Source: a bacterium
GTDB taxonomy: Bacteria; CG03
Length of the DNA: 64,000 bases
Direction: 5' to 3'
Assembly (NCBI GenBank): GCA_043825615.1
Contig: JBDRRS010000012.1
Coordinates: 1 to 64,000 of the forward strand
In this document: positions 1-9,467 of the stretch, one piece after another
Position numbering within the stretch: the first letter of the stretch is position 1
Layout: each line of letters opens with the position of its first letter
The notes under the pieces: model-generated
What the model saw: the letters and a program-made list of their open reading frames with translations, nothing else
What the model was told of the DNA's origin: nothing
The model's database searches: none
Program-made: the position numbers and the translations under genes

Positions 1-50
1 CTGCGTTCGGGACGCAGAGGTCGGCGGTTCAAGTCCGCCCACCCCGACCA
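1..50 (+). tRNA. 3' portion of a tRNA-Pro(CGG) copy (anticodon stem to CCA), cut by the window edge; inverted relative to the complete copy at 1854-1930
   Basis: Bases 1-50 are identical to the 3' 50 nt of the complete tRNA at 1854-1930 (anticodon stem CTGCG/CGCAG, loop TTCGGGA, T-arm GGCGGTTCAAGTCCGCC, acceptor CACCCCGACCA). Confidence 0.6.
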
Positions 51-203
51 TTTCAAACTTGTTGCGCGATTTTCAAAAAAATTCGGTGAGCGGAGCTCAC
101 CGTTCTTTTCGGAATTTCCGGAATCCCCCTCTGAAGAAAACAAAAAAGACCACGGCTTTTCTAAATCCAGAAGAAAGGTTTTGTCCAGCAGGCGGCGGTT
201 CGT
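1..203. repeat. Left arm of a ~203-bp inverted repeat (tRNA-Pro 3' part plus ~150 bp of downstream flank with a terminator-like hairpin); it may continue left of the window
   Basis: The reverse complement of 1-203 matches 1701-1903 with only about three mismatches (position p pairs with 1904-p). Confidence 0.85.
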
Positions 204-1567
204 TCCGATTTTTTTAACAAAAGATTTTATTTCGGGTAAATCTTTTGACAAAGCAAGTTCTCCGGCGTGGTGAGCGTCGTTAATCCAGTTTCTCAATGGT
301 TCGATCCAATTGTTCCCCTTACGCCCAAAATTTGTTTTTTTCTGTAGTAGTTCCACTTTTGTCTTTATCAGTTCATCTTTCTTTTGAAGGTAAATGTCTT
401 TTTCAATAATGCCATCAAGAAAGGCATTTACCAGCTTATCAAGTTTTTGTTCTGTGTCTTTTATTTTCTTTTTGAGATTTTGGGCGGAAGACTGCGAAGA
501 CTGGGCTCCTTCCTTTTCCCATATATCTACCTGCGCTAACATTTTTTCTTTCCAGTCTTCGCAAAGAGCGACTTTTGAAATCTTATCTCTTAATTGGTCG
601 GCAAGAGGTTCTTCCCTTAAATAACCTTGACTGCAAGGGCCAAGCCGTTTGGTACAGCGATAATAGCGGTATGTCCCGCCGTTGCCGTGGGCGTATTGCG
701 CGGTTATAGCGGCTCCGCATTCTCCGCATCTCATTAAACCTGTAAACGGGAAATCATGACCTTTTTTACTTTTTCTCGGCTTGGCTCTTTCTTTTAATAT
801 TTGCTGAACTTTTTCAAAAGTCGCTCCGGAAATAATTGCCGGAAAACAGCCCTCATAACTTTCACCATTCTGAACAATGATTCCAAGATAAACTTTATTC
901 GTAAGCATTAGCTTTAGAGTGGCCTTGCAGAGCGGTTTTCCGGTTTTGCTCTCCACGCCCCAAAAACTCAGGCGGTTGCTCAAACTTTTTAAAGTGTGTT
1001 TCCCCTGAGAAAATTCGTCAAAAGCTTTCTTGATGGCTCTCGCCTTAAAAGAATCCGGCTCAATATTTCTTGTCTTCGGATTATTAACATAACCCAGAGG
1101 GGCGAGAGTCGGCCATTCTCCCCGCCTGAGTTTTTGTCGCATCCCGCGCTTTACATTCTGTGAAAGGTTATCAGAATAGTATTTGCTCTGACCAAAGGCG
1201 ACCTGGAGCATAAAAAGCCCTTGCGGTGTCGGTTCAAACCAGAAAGTAGGAAATCGCAAAGAAGCAATATTTTCTGTATCAATTAAATAAATTATCTGAC
1301 CGCCGTCTATTGAGTTTCTTGCCAGGCGGTCGGGATGCCATGCTAATAATCCGATTGCTTCTTTGCTCTGCTTGATTTTATCAATCATCCGATTGAAAAT
1401 TTCTCTGCCGGGCTTTTTTGCGCTCTTGCTTTCAATAAATTCCTCTAATATCTCAATTTTTTCTTTTTCAGCATATTCTCGAAGTTCGGCAATTTGAGCT
1501 TCAATAGACATTATTTGCCGTTCTTCGTCCTCAGTAGATTTACGGGCATAAAGAAAAAATTTAGTTT
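1..1567 (-). CDS. Large serine recombinase (resolvase catalytic domain, recombinase domain, zinc ribbon, coiled coil). The ORF has no stop codon inside the window and reads through the inverted-repeat arm into the tRNA fragment.
   Basis: Manual translation from the ATG at 1567: MKTKFFLYARKSTEDEERQIMSIEAQ...WHPDRLARN...CGECG...YRYYRC...coiled-coil KKKIKDTEQKLDKLVNAF. An SD-like AGGAGG lies upstream. The six-frame track does not list it because the ORF runs off the window edge. Confidence 0.85.
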
Positions 1568-1700
1568 TCATAAAAATAACCTCCTGGGTCGCCTTTGGTT
1601 AAAGTGCGGGATTCAAAAATAAACTTGCTTTGTATTTCGCTTTTAGCGAAAGTTAAAAAAACAGGAGACAAAAACTTTTTTTGTAGGGAGCTTAGCGACG

Positions 1701-1903
1701 ACGAACCGCCGCTTGCTGGACAAAACCTTTCTTTTGGATTTAGAAAAGCCGTGGTCTTTTTTGTTTTCTTCAGAGGGGGATTCCGGAAATTCCGAAAAGA
1801 ACGGTGAGCATCGCTCACCGAATTTTTTTGAAAATCGCGCAACAAGTTTGAAATGGTCGGGGTGGGCGGACTTGAACCGCCGACCTCTGCGTCCCGAACG
1901 CAG
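1701..1903. repeat. Right arm of the ~203-bp inverted repeat
   Basis: Near-identical reverse complement of 1-203. It includes the hairpin GGTGAGC-atc-GCTCACC followed by a T-run, which is the terminator of the tRNA. Confidence 0.85.
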
Positions 1904-1930
1904 CGCCCTAGCCAACTGGGCCACACCCCG
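1854..1930 (-). tRNA. tRNA-Pro (anticodon CGG), 77 nt with encoded CCA
   Basis: Cloverleaf folded by hand: acceptor CGGGGTG/CACCCCG, D-arm GCCC-AGTTGGCTA-GGGC, anticodon arm CTGCG-TTCGGGA-CGCAG, variable AGGTC, T-arm GGCGG-TTCAAGT-CCGCC, then A-CCA. Confidence 0.85.
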
Positions 1931-1960
1931 TCGTTTTATTCGTTTTAATAAACTAATAAT

Positions 1961-2038
1961 AACCGCCGACCTCCCGCCCTTGGCGTCTTCGTCCGCCTGC
2001 GGCGGGGCGGACACCCTAGCCAACTGGGCCACACCCCG
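1961..2038 (-). repeat. tRNA-Pro-derived pseudo-tRNA repeat, copy A. It carries the tRNA 5' 26 nt, a 41-nt GC-rich hairpin insert in place of the anticodon arm, and the variable region plus T-stem 5' strand, and lacks the 3' half.
   Basis: It shares CGGGGTGTGGCCCAGTTGGCTAGGG and AGGTCGGCGGTT with the real tRNA, and has the internal hairpin GTCCGCC-CCGCCGCAG-GCGGAC. It is about 94% identical to copy B. Confidence 0.7.
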
Positions 2039-2039
2039 T

Positions 2040-2282
2040 CTATTTGGATAAAATATTTTTCAAAAATTTGCGGCCTAAACCGCTTTTGAAAAACCTTTCT
2101 CTTTTCATCGCTGTCGCTCGCGACAAAAACTTTTCATAATATACTATTTTCCAGAGTCCCCGTATACCGGCATAATGTCTTTTTTCATTATTATGTTCAA
2201 ACAATCTTCTTTCCAAATTATTCGTATGTCCGTAATAATATTTCCCGCTGTTCTCGCTTTTTAAAACATAAGCAAAATACAT
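2040..2282 (-). CDS. Small GIY-YIG (URI-domain) endonuclease family protein
   Basis: 80 aa with YVLKSENSGKYYYGHTNNLERRLFEHN, i.e. the GIY..YIG, Arg, Glu and Asn catalytic core. Confidence 0.75.
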   Translation of the reverse strand: MYFAYVLKSENSGKYYYGHTNNLERRLFEHNNEKRHYAGIRGLWKIVYYEKFLSRATAMKRERFFKSGLGRKFLKNILSK

Positions 2283-2287
2283 TTAAT

Positions 2288-2365
2288 AACCGCCGACCTT
2301 CCGCCCGAGGCGTCTTCGTCCGCCTGCGGCGGGGCGGACGCCCTAGCCAACTGGGCCACACCCCG
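2288..2365 (-). repeat. tRNA-Pro-derived pseudo-tRNA repeat, copy B, a direct repeat of copy A
   Basis: 78 bp with the same architecture as 1961-2038 and 4-5 substitutions; it sits immediately upstream of the GIY-YIG start codon. Confidence 0.7.
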
Positions 2366-2404
2366 AAAGAAGTATTAAATATCAAAAAAAAGAGTTTTAT
2401 TCAA

Positions 2405-2755
2405 TTATTTGGAAAGTATTTTGAAGATGGAATCAAGTTCCTTCTTTGCCTTTTTAAGCATATCTATCGCCACAGGATTCTGTTCTATCGGAAGTTGTAT
2501 CTGCTTGTCGCTGGTTTTCGATTTCAGGAGTTCTTTCTTTGCGCCGGCAATCGTAAACTTCTTTTTGTAAAGAAGGTCCTTTATTTCTTCTATCAGGTGT
2601 ATGTGCGACACCGTATATCTTCTCTGGCCGGACTCCCTTCTGATGGGCCGGAGCATCCTGAATTCCTTCTCCCAGTAGCGCAGAACATGCGGAGGAACTT
2701 TCGTCATGCCGCTCGTTTCTTTAATCGTAAAAAATTTCTTGCCTGGAATAAGCAT
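2405..2755 (-). CDS. MerR-family transcriptional regulator
   Basis: N-terminal HTH FTIKETSGMTKVPPHVLRYWEKEF is typical of MerR; 116 aa; translationally coupled to the upstream HU/IHF gene. Confidence 0.8.
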   Translation of the reverse strand: MLIPGKKFFTIKETSGMTKVPPHVLRYWEKEFRMLRPIRRESGQRRYTVSHIHLIEEIKDLLYKKKFTIAGAKKELLKSKTSDKQIQLPIEQNPVAIDMLKKAKKELDSIFKILSK

Positions 2756-3015
2756 TATTTAAACACCTTCGGAGACATAATGAATTTTACCACATTATGC
2801 GGGGGGACGTAAACCTTCTCGCCGGTTTTGGGATTCCTCGCCTCGTACGGTTTCTTCAGACGAACATGAAAGGAGCCGAAATTCTGGACAACAACCTTCT
2901 CCTTTCTCCTGAGCGCCAGCGTAATTTCTTCAAAAACCCTGTTCACGGCGTCCTTCGCTTCGCTTTTCGCGCAGGTCACATTACTTACCGCCTCTATCAA
3001 ATCAATCTTGTTCAT
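2755..3015 (-). CDS. HU/IHF-family DNA-binding protein (integration host factor-like)
   Basis: 86 aa with LIEAV..., RRKEKVVVQNFGSFHVR... and ARNPKTGEKV, the bacterial histone-like fold. Confidence 0.85.
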   Translation of the reverse strand: MNKIDLIEAVSNVTCAKSEAKDAVNRVFEEITLALRRKEKVVVQNFGSFHVRLKKPYEARNPKTGEKVYVPPHNVVKFIMSPKVFK

Positions 3016-3195
3016 CCGTCTCCTCCATTATACTTACTCGCCCGCTTATAATTCCCGGCTGCTTGACTCAATAGGGGGGATTCTCCCCCCTGATTGTGCT
3101 CCTCACGCGCTTACCAGCGCATTCGTCGCTTGTCACCCCCCATATGGTAAAAACTTTGTAGCTTTGCACGACCATACACGCCTCGAAAATCGCGC

Positions 3196-4194
3196 TTACA
3201 ACTTTTCATCCTCTTTTCTCACCGGTCTTAACATCAGGTTTTTTACCGCTTTCGCCGGAGACCGCCCTTTGTACAGAACCGCGTAAACCTCATCCGTTAT
3301 GGGCGCTGAAATTTTATTAGACGCCGTCAGCTGCCGGAGCGCTTTTACCGTTTCAGCTCCTTCCGCCGTTGTTTTTACTTTTTTCTTCGCCTCCGCAAGA
3401 TTTAACCCCCTGCCTATCGCCTCGCCGAGGTTCCTGTTCCTGCTGTATTTTGAAAAACACGTTACCATCAGATCGCCGAGCCCCGACAGACCGCAGAAAG
3501 TCGCAGGTCTCCCGCCGAGGGAAACCCCTATTCTCGTCATTTCCACAAGGCCCCTTGTAACAAGAGCCGACTTGGCATTCGCTCCGAGGCCGAGACCGTC
3601 GCTTAAACCCGCGGCGATTGCCATAACGTTTTTAACCGCGCCTCCAAGAGCAACGCCTCGGATATCCGTATGAACGTACGGCCTCAGAAATGACCTTTTA
3701 AAAAGGCGCTGGAGTTTCTCCGCAAGACGGATATTCCTTGAAGCGATTACAACGCTCGTCGGAAGGCGCCGGCTCAATTCTTCAGCATGCGACGGGCCCG
3801 ATAAAACAGCGACGGGAAAATTTGCGCCGAGCTCCTCGCTGCAAACCACATCCATACTTTTCAGAGTGGAAATTTCAATGCCCTTGCTCAGGACAAGAAC
3901 GGGTATTTTAAAACGTTTTATATCCCCTGCAATTTTGCGAAGCGTCGCCCTCACGCTCTGCGAAGAAATCGCCACAACAACAAGCCCTGTCCCGGGAGAA
4001 ATTTTCAACTCGTCGGTTATTCTGACGTTCTTCAATCTGGCATACGGAAAAAAGGGGGGATGCCTGTATTTTTTCAGATACCTGTATTTTTTCCTGTCCC
4101 ACTCCCATACCGTGACGGATGCTTTTTCACTTAAAACTTCTCCCACGGTTCCGCCCCAGCAACCGCCGCCAAGAATAAAGATATTACCGTACAT
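3196..4194 (-). CDS. gpsA: NAD(P)H-dependent glycerol-3-phosphate dehydrogenase
   Basis: 332 aa with an N-terminal Rossmann motif ILGGGCWG and the GpsA core ...GVALGGAVKNVMAIAAG... Confidence 0.9.
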   Translation of the reverse strand: MYGNIFILGGGCWGGTVGEVLSEKASVTVWEWDRKKYRYLKKYRHPPFFPYARLKNVRITDELKISPGTGLVVVAISSQSVRATLRKIAGDIKRFKIPVLVLSKGIEISTLKSMDVVCSEELGANFPVAVLSGPSHAEELSRRLPTSVVIASRNIRLAEKLQRLFKRSFLRPYVHTDIRGVALGGAVKNVMAIAAGLSDGLGLGANAKSALVTRGLVEMTRIGVSLGGRPATFCGLSGLGDLMVTCFSKYSRNRNLGEAIGRGLNLAEAKKKVKTTAEGAETVKALRQLTASNKISAPITDEVYAVLYKGRSPAKAVKNLMLRPVRKEDEKL

Positions 4195-4244
4195 AATTTT
4201 ATAACTTTGATATTTTACTTTAACTCTGTGTTTTTGTCAAAGGA

Positions 4245-4280
4245 GCAAAATAATAATTTGCGGTCCGCCTGAGGCGGATG
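4245..4280 (-). terminator. Putative rho-independent terminator after the SPFH gene
   Basis: On the minus strand the hairpin TCCGCC-tca-GGCGGA is followed by a T-rich tract (ccgcaaattattatttt). Confidence 0.4.
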
Positions 4281-4301
4281 AGAACTTCCCCTTCTGCCTG
4301 T

Positions 4302-5057
4302 TTATTTTTGTTCTTTTTTATTTTCCATAAACGCCTTGAACAGGTCAATCGGAATCGGGAATACCGTCACGGAATTGTTCTCGGTTGCGATTTCCGTAAG
4401 CGTTTGAAGATACCGCAGCTGCACAGCGACCGGGCTCTGGCTCATTATTTTCGCAGCGTCGGTAATCTTTTGCGCCGCCTGAAATTCTCCTTCGGCGTGT
4501 ATGACTTTCGCGCGGCGGTCCCTTTCCGCTTCCGCCTGGCGGGCAATGGCTCTCTGCATATCCGCGGGGATTTGAACATCCTTTATTTCAACTCTTGAGA
4601 CCTTGATTCCCCACGGGTCCGTCGCCTGGTCTATAATCCTCTGAAGTTCCGAATTTATCTTATCCCTCTTGGAAAGCACCTCGTCAAACGAGACCTGCCC
4701 CACGACGCTGCGGAGGGTTGTCTGCGAAATCTGGCTGGTCGCCATGATGAAGTCCTCTATTTCCACAACGGCCTTCTCCGGATCCATAACCCTGAAATAG
4801 CAGACGGCATTTACCTTAACCGGCACGTTATCCATGGTGATAACTTCCTGCGAGGGCACATCCAGCGTAACAGTCCTCAAATCTATCTTAACCCATTTTT
4901 CAAGGAAAGGGATTATAAAAAAAAGACCCGGGCCGCGGGCGCCGACAAGACGTCCCAGACGGAAAACCACGCCTCTTTCATACTCCTTGGCGATTTTTAC
5001 CGCGTTCATCAGAAAAATTACAACGAGAATAATCAGCAGATACATAAATCCTCCCAT
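4302..5057 (-). CDS. SPFH/band-7 (stomatin/prohibitin-like) membrane protein
   Basis: N-terminal TM helix, then the conserved band-7 domain ([12 protein letters not shown] ... coiled-coil AERDRRAKV). Confidence 0.85.
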
Positions 5058-5086
5058 TCACGGTTACAACCGCGTTTATACCAACC

Positions 5087-6463
5087 TTATGTTTTTCTCT
5101 GGATTTTCACCCTGAGTGTCGCTGGGAACTTTGCCTTGAGAATTTCTTCCGCTTTTTTCGCCGAGGCAATTGCCCTCGCTTTAACGAGAGGGTCGTAATC
5201 CTCAATCAGCGTTTCCAGAAAGTTCATCACCGAAATATCGGCAATCTCTCCCGCCGCCCAGGCGGCGGAAATGCGGTCCCATTTATTTTCCGACTGTACC
5301 ATTTCTTTCAACGTATTTTCCGAGGCGACGGCGTCGAACCTGAACATTTCAACCGCGGCATCCGCCCTGACCCTGTTGTTTTTATCTTTTAAAAACGGCG
5401 CAATAAGGCGCGCGGCGAGCGCGGGGTTGTTTACCGCCCTGGCAATTGAAACGACGCTTTTGGCGCGGGCGCGGTTGGCCGAAGAAATATCGGTTATAAC
5501 ACTCCGGGAAACCGCGCTTTCGAATTCCACATTCTCCGTCGAAGCAGATGCGCCTTTCACGCTTTTTTCCACAACGCTTATCAGATTTTCCGCCTGCTTC
5601 ATCAAATTCTCTTCCAGCGGATGCGAGCGGTTCGCCGCAATCTTCTCAAGCAGTTCCGCGTTCGCGCTTTTCAAGTCATCAAGAGAGGCGCCGACATCGC
5701 CCTTCGCCGCAAGTTCGTGAATAAGTTCTGCCGTCCTGTCGGAACTCCTGGAAAATTCTTCTCTTAGCCGCAGACTTATATTTGAAACGACCCTTGACGA
5801 TATCAGAAAACTCGCCGCAACAACGATAAAAACTGCGATTGAAAAAAAGATAAGCCATCTGGTCGCGATTATGTGCGTCTGCTGTCTTAATATTTCTATT
5901 TCCTCTTTTCTTTCCCCCAGGTCTTTCTTCGTTTTTTCTATTTCCCCGCGCATTGACTTTTCCCTTTCCTCCCTGATTCTCGTTTCTTCCGCAAGGCGCT
6001 GGTTGCTTTCTGCACGCAGTTTTTCCCGCGCGAGTTCTTCTTCCCTTTCCCTTTTTGCCGCATAGGCTCGTCTTTTCTGCTCTTCAATTTTTACGTCGTC
6101 CCTTTTCTCTATATCTTTTGTTATGCTTGCCTGCGCGTCTCTTGCTTCTTTCAGTTCCGGCGTGTATTTCAGCGCCTCTTCCGCCACACTCAGCGCGCCG
6201 TCGAGGTCGCCGGCCGCATGGCTGTCCTTGGCAAGAGACGTCAACGCCCTGCCGAGAAGCCCTATCGCCTTTAAATTACCGGGGTCTTTTTTAACGACCT
6301 CTTTCAAATCGGCCGCAGCTCCTGCCCAGTCATGCGCAAGATATTTTTCCGCCGCCTGGTCGAACAGTTTTTCCACTTCAGGCGGCTGAGCAAACAGAGT
6401 GAAGAGTGAAGAGTGAAGAGTGAAGAATAAGAAAGAGAAAAACAGGAACTTATATTTTTTCAT
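5087..6463 (-). CDS. Hypothetical secreted or membrane protein with a signal peptide, TPR-like N-terminus, long coiled coil, one TM helix and C-terminal HEAT-like repeats
   Basis: 458 aa. The N-terminus is hydrophobic, the middle is a charged coiled coil, IIATRWLIFFSIAVFIVVAASFLI is a TM helix, and the C-terminus has PBS-lyase HEAT-like repeats. Confidence 0.55.
   Translation of the reverse strand: MKKYKFLFFSFLFFTLHSSLFTLFAQPPEVEKLFDQAAEKYLAHDWAGAAADLKEVVKKDPGNLKAIGLLGRALTSLAKDSHAAGDLDGALSVAEEALKYTPELKEARDAQASITKDIEKRDDVKIEEQKRRAYAAKREREEELAREKLRAESNQRLAEETRIREEREKSMRGEIEKTKKDLGERKEEIEILRQQTHIIATRWLIFFSIAVFIVVAASFLISSRVVSNISLRLREEFSRSSDRTAELIHELAAKGDVGASLDDLKSANAELLEKIAANRSHPLEENLMKQAENLISVVEKSVKGASASTENVEFESAVSRSVITDISSANRARAKSVVSIARAVNNPALAARLIAPFLKDKNNRVRADAAVEMFRFDAVASENTLKEMVQSENKWDRISAAWAAGEIADISVMNFLETLIEDYDPLVKARAIASAKKAEEILKAKFPATLRVKIQRKT
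6397..6424. repeat. Perfect heptanucleotide tandem repeat (GAGTGAA)x4, equal to (TTCACTC)x4 on the coding strand, inside the signal-peptide codons of the 5087-6463 gene
   Basis: Read directly from the sequence; the unit length is not a multiple of 3. Confidence 0.8.
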
Positions 6464-8346: not shown

Positions 8347-9467
8347 CAGAATTTTCTTACGGCCTTTTTGTGCGCTTCGGATGCCTCATCCTGCGCGGCG
8401 ACTTTTGACGTTTTAATTTTTATTTTCAGGTCATTCGGATTGTTGCTGACGCCGAGGGCTTCCTCTTCGGTAATCAGGTCTTTCTGCAAAAGCGCATACA
8501 GCGACTGATTCAATGTGCACATGTTATAAAACGAGGCGGACTCGGCGATAAACTGCTGTATTTTATTCGTCTGGTTATCTTCTATGGCTTTGGCAATCAC
8601 GGGCGTGTTTAGCATTATTTCATGGGCGGCGACTCTTCCTTTCTGGTCTTTCGTTTTGCACAGACGCTGTGAAACAATCGCAACCAGCGCCAGTGCAAGC
8701 TGGTGTCTCGTAAAGTCCTGCGTGTCGCCCGGGAACGTGTCAACGATTCTTTCAATCGTCTGCTTTGCGTCGTTCGTGTGCAGCGTTGAAAATACAAGGT
8801 GCCCCGTTTCCGCGGCGCTGAGCGCGATTGATATCGACTCCTGGTCCCTCATCTCCCCGATGAGTATGCAGTCGGGGTCCTGACGGAGCGCTCTTTTCAG
8901 CGATGACGACCACGAAGCGGTGTCCATTCCTATTTCCCGCTGGTTTATGATTGCTTTTTTGTCGGAATGCACAAACTCTATGGGGTCCTCGACAGTGATT
9001 ATGTTGACGGGGTTCTTTTCATTCACCTCGTTAATCATTGCAGCGAGAGTCGTTGATTTGCCCGACCCCGTGGGGCCCACTACCAGTATCAGCCCCTGAT
9101 TTTTTTTGACGATTTCCTTTAGAACGGGAGGAAGCCCCATTTCGTCTATGGTGGGAATTTCCTCCGGAATTACCCTGAAAACGCCTCCCGGAAAATTCTT
9201 CTGAAAAAAAAGATTCGCCCTGAACCTGCCGAAGCCCTGTATCGCTATGGCAAAATCATATTCTTTTTCTTCGCAGAATTTTTTGTATTTTTCTTCTCCG
9301 ACTTCTCTCCTGAAAAGTTCCGTTATTTTCTCCTCCGTCAGCGGTTCTTCTTCGCTTCTGTCGAGCAGACCGCGGAGGCGGTAAATCGGCGGCTGACCGA
9401 CTTTTATGTGAAGGTCGCTGCCCTTCAATTCCACAAGTTTTTTCAAATAATCCCTGAGTTCAGCCAT
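8346..9467 (-). CDS. pilT: Type IV pilus retraction ATPase PilT/PilU family. The real start is probably the internal Met at 9467 (MAELRDYLKK...); the track ORF extends to 9578.
   Basis: Walker A GPTGSGKSTTLAAM plus ASP box, Walker B and His box typical of PilT. An SD AGAGGA lies 6 nt upstream of the ATG at 9467. Confidence 0.85.
   Translation of the reverse strand: MAELRDYLKKLVELKGSDLHIKVGQPPIYRLRGLLDRSEEEPLTEEKITELFRREVGEEKYKKFCEEKEYDFAIAIQGFGRFRANLFFQKNFPGGVFRVIPEEIPTIDEMGLPPVLKEIVKKNQGLILVVGPTGSGKSTTLAAMINEVNEKNPVNIITVEDPIEFVHSDKKAIINQREIGMDTASWSSSLKRALRQDPDCILIGEMRDQESISIALSAAETGHLVFSTLHTNDAKQTIERIVDTFPGDTQDFTRHQLALALVAIVSQRLCKTKDQKGRVAAHEIMLNTPVIAKAIEDNQTNKIQQFIAESASFYNMCTLNQSLYALLQKDLITEEEALGVSNNPNDLKIKIKTSKVAAQDEASEAHKKAVRKF

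Follow-up and report, generated by a model that had tools for sequence, protein, structure and literature searches.

Serine integrases are usually described at protein-coding or intergenic targets, with attP beside the integrase gene. Invertible segments that exchange the 3' end of a gene are known from the Mu Gin G-segment, P1 Cin and the R64 shufflon, and the Hin gene lies inside its own segment; Gin, Cin and Hin are small serine invertases, Rci is a tyrosine recombinase, their sites measure about 20-30 bp and the protein that is varied is a surface protein of the host or phage. The closest published concept to the locus analysed here is represented by the "suicidal" tyrosine integrases of the SSV type from archaeal viruses and plasmids, in which the att site lies inside the integrase open reading frame (ORF) and integration at a tRNA gene partitions the gene (PMC7253208, PMC8371274). 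The present analysis concerns positions 1-1930 of a stretch of 64,000 nucleotides (the window; contig JBDRRS010000012.1 of the bacterial assembly GCA_043825615.1, forward strand), where the gene of a large serine recombinase (LSR) lies between two inverted copies of the 3' region of a tRNA-Pro. From comparison with its relatives, this segment is likely to be the recombinase module of an LSR element that integrates at tRNA 3' ends, in the form of a double-junction derivative.

A sequence-only reading of this DNA had noticed two convergent tRNA-Pro copies, and both were recovered with ARAGORN and Rfam (Table 1); the complete tRNA-Pro(CGG) gene is the sole tRNA detected by ARAGORN in the window. 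Its last 6 nt (1854-1859, TGGTCG on the plus strand) form the joint with the repeat arm on the N-terminal side of the recombinase. The partial copy holds the anticodon arm, the variable loop, the T arm, the 3' strand of the acceptor and ACCA. It begins precisely at canonical nt 27, where the anticodon stem starts, matches the reverse complement of 1854-1903 with 100% identity and is traversed in antisense by the recombinase ORF. In agreement with the same reading, each tRNA copy belongs to one arm of an inverted repeat of 203 nt (98% complementary with the repeat finder), each arm contains a terminator-like hairpin and the LSR gene is the only gene between the arms. Arms of this length and identity are far beyond chance. 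Pairwise alignment shows identity over the outer 92 nt and a mismatch at each of four left-arm positions (93, 94, 170 and 191); these mismatches indicate that the arms are two physical copies.

The gene product contains the domains Resolvase (PF00239, E = 3.2e-23, residues 6-153), Recombinase (PF07508, E = 1.1e-12) and Zn_ribbon_recom (PF13408, E = 1.2e-11). The motif YARKSTEDEERQ of the catalytic domain, which includes the nucleophilic serine, is invariant in the 19 homologs aligned. PHROG 95 ("integrase") is matched with E = 6.5e-82 and chains of the SPbeta integrase with E of about 1e-9; on these matches, the protein is a large serine recombinase and only distant kin of the SPbeta integrase. 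Narrower identities were rejected. With the NCBIfam cut-offs as reference, XisF reaches 95.5 bits against an equivalog cut-off of 375, and CcrB, CcrA and CcrC reach 92 against 900, 79 against 700 and 58.5 against 900 bits, respectively. The IS607-family transposases (28 bits against a cut-off of 110) are matched by the catalytic domain only, and the protein is an LSR of more than 500 amino acids. Invertases of the Hin/Gin type (about 190 amino acids, with a C-terminal helix-turn-helix) were set aside in view of at least 456 residues before the arm and of the LSR domain set; a PHROG "DNA invertase" family matches the first 261 residues only. A tyrosine recombinase fold was also rejected, since Pfam detects only serine recombinase domains.

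The sequence-only reading had described the ORF as passing without a stop codon through the repeat and into the tRNA. This holds over 523 open codons, with the inner boundary of the repeat (203/204) crossed after codon 456 and not near codon 454 as it had been placed. Unique sequence accounts for codons 1-456, the arm for codons 457-507 and antisense tRNA for codons 508 onward. The protein search recovered more than 100 homologs with 65-89% identity, distributed in many phyla. They are conserved across the boundary, with KIGTN before it and RRLLDxKxxFDFxxPFDLIPKY after it, followed by a variable linker and then by WSGRxDLNxRP, which is the translation of the antisense tRNA. The earlier reading had also proposed a recombination junction at this boundary, in the 3' end of the gene, to be checked by looking for homologs that end there; when this check was run, most homologs were found to reach the last residue of the query. 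As the arm peptide is homologous to the tails of more than 100 homologs, the join at 203/204 is native and is not a recombination junction.

For a survey of the family, species-representative genomes and metagenomes supplied 80 loci each, to which a few were added by exact protein look-up. An inverted repeat surrounds the LSR gene in 119 of 161 related loci, one arm lying before the start codon and the other constituting the 3' end of the ORF. The repeat length varies from 45 to 273 nt (median 131); 52 repeats show 100% identity and 104 at least 95%, and most of the loci without a repeat are merely short of flanking sequence. The family is spread over Patescibacteria, Omnitrophota, Elusimicrobia, Planctomycetia, Bacteroidales and others. 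The architecture occurs deep inside long contigs, namely CP060229 (a whole-chromosome record of 994,774 bp) and contigs of 6.2, 1.0, 0.64 and 0.46 Mb, and two copies are present in CP060229, in the 6.2-Mb contig (Bacteroidales) and in locus L059. In the latter, two family elements are adjacent (393-5600): the second LSR (417-2042) has its own arms and abuts a tRNA at 2031-2117, and the distal X-core end of the first element starts about 50 nt past this tRNA. Many short-read contigs begin inside the upstream arm or about 50 nt beyond it, which would be expected of an inverted repeat that breaks the de Bruijn graph.

These observations bear on an assembly artefact, the last of the explanations left by the sequence-only reading, in which the left copy would come from a fold-back or chimeric contig end. 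Although the repeat is located at the very end of the contig and its outer 92 nt are identical to those of the right copy, this explanation is almost certainly wrong in view of the four mismatches between the arms, of the continuity of arm and ORF in more than 100 homologs and of the same architecture in long contigs, including a whole-chromosome record. Moreover, a second locus with a tRNA on both sides (L037) is found well inside its contig.

A convergent tRNA is present at the end of the arm on the C-terminal side (C-side) in 75 loci and belongs to 15 amino-acid types: Pro in 33 loci, and Glu, Ala, Gln, Arg, Met, Lys, Trp, Ile, Ser, Phe, Asp, Leu, Gly and Tyr in the rest. In 69 of these 75 loci the arm and the tRNA 3' end overlap by only 4-6 nt, and the family repeat normally stops at tRNA nt 70/71. 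The bases at the start of both arms change in step with the tRNA type: they read CGACCA (Pro), CCACCA (Ala), CAGCCA or GAGCCA (Gln), TCAC (Glu), GCAC (Arg), GGAC (Lys) and CAAC (Met). The tRNAs beside the elements score 52-69 bits in Rfam and receive nt 71-76 from the arm, that is to say, insertion at the 3' end restores an intact tRNA. Across the family, the arm continues with a new trailer that includes a bidirectional terminator, and it also codes for roughly the final 50 LSR codons ahead of the core.

In the common form of the locus, the upstream arm adjoins not a tRNA but a conserved block of about 40 nt, named X hereafter (consensus ttCAAAAtAGGTTCGaGCaacGTTtAgaATatc, 65 loci). The sequence GGTTCGAGC is located in X at half-site positions 24-16, counted from tRNA nt 71-72, and the T-arm segment G52-N60 of the tRNA (GGTTCRAGY) at positions 19-11 (counted by hand from the tRNA numbering); the T-arm 9-mer is 5 bp farther from the core in X than in the tRNA. 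The sequence AAGTY is common to X and tRNA at positions 14-10 and is mirrored as AACTT in the arm. For the LI integrase, the ZD motif occupies positions 16-24 in the attP half-sites and 11-19 in the attB half-sites, and the recombinase domain binds the same positions in both (Rutherford et al., PMC3783163). Since the registers of X and of the T-arm match these positions, X resembles a half-site of the P type and the tRNA T-arm one of the B type, with a putative crossover at tRNA nt 71-72 (CG in the window). A sigma-70 promoter was also considered for X and rejected, the consensus scan of L086 having flagged nothing in the block. Only tRNAs were recognised by Rfam among the arms, X and W, a segment that precedes X in the copies of L118 (W-X-core-arm).

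Block X also contains the native end of the gene. Among 73 loci whose tRNA junction is well defined, 72 have an LSR frame without interruption along the entire arm, hairpin included. Their first stop codon falls within the antisense tRNA in 41 loci, past the tRNA in 29 and outside the locus sequence in 2, with no conserved C-terminus. When the arm is followed by the reverse complement of X, the frame gives WS-xLLNEARTYFExx and, in 45 of 54 loci, meets a stop 12-18 codons past the core; CGACCA, read as its reverse complement, supplies the Trp-Ser codons TGG TCG. Both ends are found in the databases: among the top 120 homologs, about 28 end in the native WS-xLLNEARTYFE peptide and about 76 in an antisense-tRNA tail. 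In the contigs of two native-tail proteins the LSR reads through the core into X and then cargo follows, one of the cargoes being a Type III restriction-modification system. With a frame open through the arm and a tail encoded by X, the LSR gene spans the core, and joining to a tRNA would swap its last 12-18 codons; we infer that the gene spans attP. For the window, the sequences point to a junction at the outer end of the arm, at the core CGACCA (45-50 and 1854-1859), where the native C-terminal codons would have been replaced by antisense tRNA.

Upstream of the LSR gene, a second inverted repeat ending exactly at the core was detected in 24 loci. It measures 131-608 nt and is often 100% identical; its other copy lies 1.1-8.2 kb farther and the sequence in between is the cargo. 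Among the 51 loci with at least 3 kb upstream, 22 have this second repeat. Past the distal copy, X-core meets locus-specific sequence. Five such sequences were read by eye, and two of them have a terminator-like hairpin, which recalls a native tRNA trailer; L086 has the same kind of junction. The three sites of an element share only a core of 2-21 nt. No direct repeat of the tRNA 3' segment was found at the distal end, the long repeats being inverted. In these terms, tRNA-core-arm would correspond to attL, X-core-trailer to attR and the internal X-core-arm to an intact inverted attP region. The remark of the sequence-only reading that ordinary formation of attL and attR cannot explain an inverted duplication of 200 bp is well founded for the window, and its proposal of a novel recombinase-borne element using tRNA-Pro captures a part of the truth.

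The extent of the element also bears on a simpler explanation, a minimal transposon resembling an insertion sequence and consisting of a recombinase gene with 200-bp terminal inverted repeats, which would have landed between convergent tRNA-Pro genes or produced an inverted target duplication. The LSR gene stands alone between the arms, several copies per genome and broken assemblies are seen, with the contig starts inside or about 50 nt outside the arm as described above, and 29 of the 51 loci show neither second repeat nor cargo within the available flank. Yet the native stop codon of the gene, in block X, is outside the repeat, complete elements end past the cargo at the distal X-core-trailer junction, and the repeat extends 50 nt into the tRNA here only from the presence of a tRNA on both sides, the family repeat stopping at nt 70/71. 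Such a transposon is thus very improbable.

The cargo is variable and rich in Type II and Type III restriction-modification, AbiEii-like, HEPN-AbiU2 and similar genes, nearly all on the strand opposite to the LSR. In 20 of 24 cargo segments every ORF of at least 100 amino acids is on this opposite strand, so that the cargo genes diverge from the internal X-core-arm region. The X-side arms of L062 (1945-2061 and 3718-3834) and L127 (8344-8460 and 9716-9833) are 94-95% identical, whereas their LSRs share just 71-75% identity and their tRNA targets are Ala and Pro, respectively; near-identical X-side arms with divergent LSRs suggest an exchange of cargo-side modules between elements. No candidate for a recombination directionality factor (RDF) was recognised in the smallest elements (cargo of 1.1-1.3 kb), and the all-against-all comparison of upstream ORFs, made for a conserved neighbour (RDF or partner), gave only DNA methylases common to few loci. 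In the 6.2-Mb Bacteroidales contig, both element copies (L067, 2323-3276; L072, 2464-3270) contain a conserved ORF of about 270-320 amino acids without Pfam match; its end coincides with the beginning of the arm on the N-terminal side (N-side), and 580 nt separate this arm from the LSR start codon.

The simplest free form of such an element would be a circle in which two inverted copies of the attP region part the LSR segment from the cargo segment; use of one attP would give the common forms with a tRNA on one side and X on the other, in either orientation. This model predicts three flank states, (X,X), (tRNA,X) and (tRNA,tRNA), and all three were found. The state (X,X) is represented by L118, where the LSR with native tail lies between two full W-X-core-arm copies of 273 nt with 100% identity. 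The state (tRNA,X) is the majority and occurs in both orientations: L035 and L045 share the same host flank (tRNA-Pro(CGG), tRNA-Ala and host genes) and have the LSR inverted with respect to each other, in L166 and L167 the LSR reads into X and then cargo follows, and in L082, L031 and L045 the tRNA is on the N-terminal side; for L082 and L031 this is the same side as in the window. The state (tRNA,tRNA) comprises the window and L037, situated between tRNA-Pro(GGG) and tRNA-Pro(CGG). No replication gene was seen. A phage origin was rejected, only two partial matches having been obtained among 2.9 million viral contigs.

The two orientations recall the invertible segment proposed by the sequence-only reading, which also captures part of the truth. 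In its full version, a self-contained switch, the recombinase would flip its own gene between the arms and thereby toggle its C-terminus or promoter context. The inverted LSRs of L035 and L045, the two classes of C-terminal tails among the homologs and the near identity of the arms are as this reading would have them, and the core dinucleotide CG of tRNA-Pro is palindromic, which to judge from the sequence would permit inversion by a serine recombinase. However, both arms of the window are joined to the same tRNA sequence, and flipping would alter neither tail nor flanks; the 64 kb contain no X block or native tail, and no adjacent host gene is under the control of the segment. Furthermore, most other tRNA types have a non-palindromic core. 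It is CC in the flipped locus L031 (tRNA-Leu), and inversion catalysed by the LSR is accordingly not generally possible; the same locus rules out the idea that flipped forms occur only at palindromic cores (CG or GC). The switch is consequently improbable as an account of the window.

The preferred reading, a double-junction derivative of the tRNA-targeting element, takes these flank states as its starting point. The nearest complete comparison is L086, a relative with 89% identity in the common form, located next to a tRNA-Pro(TGG), with a canonical X, a cargo of 6.1 kb and an arm nearly identical to that of the window; an arm homologous to that of the window was also found in L031. The N-side arm of the window leads into the complete tRNA-Pro(CGG) and the chromosome, and the C-side arm into tRNA nt 27-76 and then to the contig end. 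The X motif and the native tail peptide were sought across the 64 kb and none was found, nor were further copies of the arm. Both arms being joined to tRNA, with no X in 64 kb, both attP regions appear to have been consumed. In a first step, the element would have integrated with the tRNA on the N-terminal side, the LSR being left intact. The attP inside the gene would then have recombined with a second copy of tRNA-Pro(CGG) or with a displaced 3' fragment, and this event would have cut off the native tail and separated the cargo from the LSR. The end state would be an LSR locked between two attL-type junctions. According to the directionality of serine integrases, the LSR alone should not recombine two such junctions (PMC3783163), and the copy of the window is probably derived and immobilised. 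The repeat, together with a second context of tRNA nt 27-76, would break the assembly graph, which would be the reason why the contig ends there.

The same element could also have reached its (tRNA,tRNA) state by homologous recombination of the RecA type, with two elements resident at two tRNA-Pro genes as partners, or else an arm and a tRNA fragment that had been displaced. The two arms of L037 match different relatives, L029 in the outer part of the N-side arm and L035 in the C-side arm, as for a recombinant of two elements; the arms of the window differ at four inner positions and are identical in their outer 92 nt; genomes with two copies exist, as reported above. On the other hand, X stays on the N-terminal side after a simple crossover of two inverted copies, whether in the arms or in the LSR gene, and something more complex has to be invoked (this point is reasoned and not computed). 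The data fit both routes alike, and we regard the RecA route as a serious alternative, although the less likely one.

Several points weigh against the site-specific double-junction reading and the element model behind it. Homologous recombination between two resident elements could equally have produced the (tRNA,tRNA) state. All att assignments are drawn from sequence patterns, and the outer half-site of the arm (Y) has no clear ZD motif and may be of the P' or of the B' type. The conservation of the tail peptide could be a by-product of the conservation of X at the DNA level, as a binding site. The query used to rank the loci had a tRNA-antisense tail, which biases the orientation frequencies, and 29 of the 51 loci with at least 3 kb upstream have no second repeat. 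Concerning the free form with two attP regions, it is drawn mainly from L118, one short contig; no terminal direct or inverted overlap indicative of a circular or episomal form was detected in any fetched contig, and the viral contigs gave the two partial matches only.

Full-text searches of the literature brought up neither an LSR combined with long inverted repeats at tRNA genes nor a serine integrase whose ORF spans attP, and the family is apparently undescribed within the LSR integrative elements. Its unusual features, as far as they can be read from the alignments, would be the T-arm as attB half-site, the core covarying with the tRNA, the gene spanning attP and the duplicated inverted attP regions. 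We propose, tentatively and with somewhat less than even confidence, a bacterial element family in which the T-arm serves as attB-type half-site, the core at nt 71-73 sets the tRNA target, the gene spans attP (integration being "suicidal" for the native C-terminus), a second inverted attP is present, the cargo is a small set of restriction-modification or Abi genes and the window is an end state of double integration. If this is true, the second inverted attP would make different integration isomers available, let inversion restore the gene and permit a double integration between tRNA genes in the manner of a cassette exchange, and may also drive chromosomal inversions.

The features of the window are collected in Table 1. 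The left arm serves as replacement trailer of the tRNA and also encodes codons 457-507 of the recombinase. Its hairpin, whose location inside the ORF is conserved in relatives and which is also present in L086, is followed on the minus strand (102-84) by a T-run, about 27 codons short of the window edge. This position raises the possibility that, if the hairpin terminates, LSR messages of the tRNA-joined state have no stop codon. The hairpin copy would also act as the terminator of a tRNA whose own trailer was displaced.

Table 1. Coordinates of the recombinase segment in the 64,000-nt window.
Feature	Position	Strand	Evidence and remarks
LSR ORF, no stop codon before the contig end	3-1571	-	ATG at 1571-1569; 523 sense codons
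Complete tRNA-Pro(CGG) gene	1854-1930	-	ARAGORN; Rfam, 66 bits
3' part of tRNA-Pro(CGG), canonical nt 27-76	1-50	+	Rfam match 1-47, model positions 26-71; 5' end cut
Core CGACCA (tRNA nt 71-76), C-terminal-side junction	45-50	+	Read by the ORF as TGG TCG (Trp-Ser)
Inverted repeat, left arm (50 nt of tRNA and element arm of 153 nt)	1-203	.	Repeat finder, alignment
Inverted repeat, right arm (arm 1701-1853; tRNA nt 27-76 at 1854-1903)	1701-1903	.	Repeat finder, alignment
Terminator-like hairpin, reads as a terminator on both strands; inside the ORF, before any stop codon	84-102	.	Hairpin prediction
Right-arm copy of the bidirectional hairpin; serves the complete tRNA-Pro gene as terminator	1802-1820	.	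Hairpin prediction
Upstream region of the recombinase gene	1572-1700	-	Ribosome-binding site GGAGG (reverse complement of 1580-1584), read from the sequence

Between the arms, a 15-nt box at 1652-1666 is inverted relative to 204-218 (inverted-pair finder). Inverted boxes of 15-18 nt extend the repeat past an interruption both in the window and in relatives, one copy lying just inside the C-side arm (codons KKIG) and the other past the N-side arm, ahead of the start codon; binding sites and remnants of a longer repeat are two possible explanations. Beyond the complete tRNA-Pro, the chromosome continues with a GIY-YIG protein, a MerR-like regulator, HU and GpsA. A protein of 523 amino acids identical to the LSR (P0001) is annotated as "partial" in NCBI and located on a contig of 99,935 bp; position 1 of the window is in all likelihood the contig end, as this partial annotation indicates. 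Exact look-ups were made with P0001 and with the GIY-YIG, MerR-like and GpsA proteins to extend the window leftwards; they yielded either nothing or a single short Logan contig, which ends near window position 3115 and places the same GpsA in SRR26275509. The G+C content decreases from about 0.45-0.50 at 1-20 kb to 0.30-0.36 at 24-40 kb and is then mostly 0.31-0.42 up to the end of the window; the region 20000-64000 may be a large foreign region, or the contig may be composite.

Fragments of tRNA were also observed near the elements. Just upstream of the tRNA-Pro of the window, two direct repeats of 82 nt on the minus strand (1957-2038 and 2284-2365, 95% identical) surround an ORF of 80 amino acids of the GIY-YIG type (2040-2282). 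Each repeat consists of tRNA-Pro nt 1-25 or 1-27, a GC-rich hairpin in place of the anticodon arm and tRNA nt 44-55, with a break in the T-loop; Rfam did not call them tRNAs. With its breakpoint at nt 27, this 5' piece exactly complements the portion of the tRNA (nt 27-76) contained in the left arm. Similar 5' fragments are located upstream of the tRNA in L014, L018, L026, L108, L124 and L133. In L082, one of the closest relatives (83% identity), the tRNA-Pro next to the N-side arm (9241-9446) is split in the anticodon loop by an insert of 115 nt, which contains a complete tRNA-Pro(TGG) (9313-9386) and whose flanks form an extended stem of 11 bp (CCCGACTTTTG and CAAAAGTCGGG). L014 likewise presents a 5' fragment, a full tRNA and a 3' fragment.

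For tRNAs of 15 amino-acid types, half-sites of the attP and attB kinds are predicted by the comparison. The use of the universal T-arm as attB-type half-site, combined with a short core covarying with the tRNA, suggests a simple rule of target choice, with a potential use in genome engineering. The model would also explain the hundreds of "partial" recombinase genes situated at contig ends beside tRNA genes in metagenome-assembled genomes, as well as predicted C-termini that are translations of antisense tRNA, and it marks these loci as hot spots for restriction-modification and abortive-infection genes.

Among the known systems, the islands that target tRNA genes are represented by the tyrosine-integrase islands and by the tycheposons, of which a minority carry an LSR and for which the architecture described here is not mentioned (bioRxiv 10.1101/2020.12.28.424599). 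They likewise consist of a small cargo island at a tRNA 3' end, with the integrase beside the tRNA and the tRNA restored with sequence from the element. In contrast, the present elements have no distal direct repeat of the tRNA 3' fragment, only a shared core of 2-21 nt, and they display long inverted repeats and an integrase ORF that extends in antisense into the tRNA. With the Gin, Cin, Hin and shufflon systems, the family has in common a recombinase gene between inverted repeats, an inversion that changes a 3' end and, at the family level, the presence of both orientations; it differs from them in that the C-terminus affected is that of the LSR itself, in that the repeats measure 45-273 nt and in that inversion of the window would change nothing. 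In the yeast 2-micron plasmid, a nuclear plasmid with its own replication origin, the tyrosine recombinase Flp acts on FRT sites inside inverted repeats of 599 bp. The free form proposed from L118 would similarly have two unique segments, one with the recombinase gene, parted by long inverted repeats that bear the target; unlike the 2-micron plasmid, no circular form or replication gene was seen among the fetched loci.

The domains Resolvase, Recombinase and Zn-ribbon are the same as in the serine integrases of phages and islands (Listeria A118/LI, Bxb1, phiC31, SPbeta SprA), where the ZD motif is shifted by 5 bp between attP and attB, a pattern fitted here at the sequence level only. The family differs from these integrases by its target, the T-arm and acceptor end of tRNAs of 15 amino-acid types, by an ORF that spans the attP core, by an attP region present twice and inverted, with identical flanks of 45-273 nt on the LSR side and 131-608 nt on the cargo side, and by the lack of an evident RDF in its smallest elements. 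As in the SSV-type integrases, an att site appears to lie inside the ORF, to judge from the sequence patterns. The SSV-type integrases are archaeal tyrosine recombinases whose gene is split into two large parts, whereas the bacterial serine recombinase described here loses its last 12-18 codons and most elements keep a spare inverted copy of this 3' end. The logic of an integrase gene that spans its own att site would thus be extended from the archaeal tyrosine integrases to bacterial serine recombinases, with the addition of a spare inverted 3' end.

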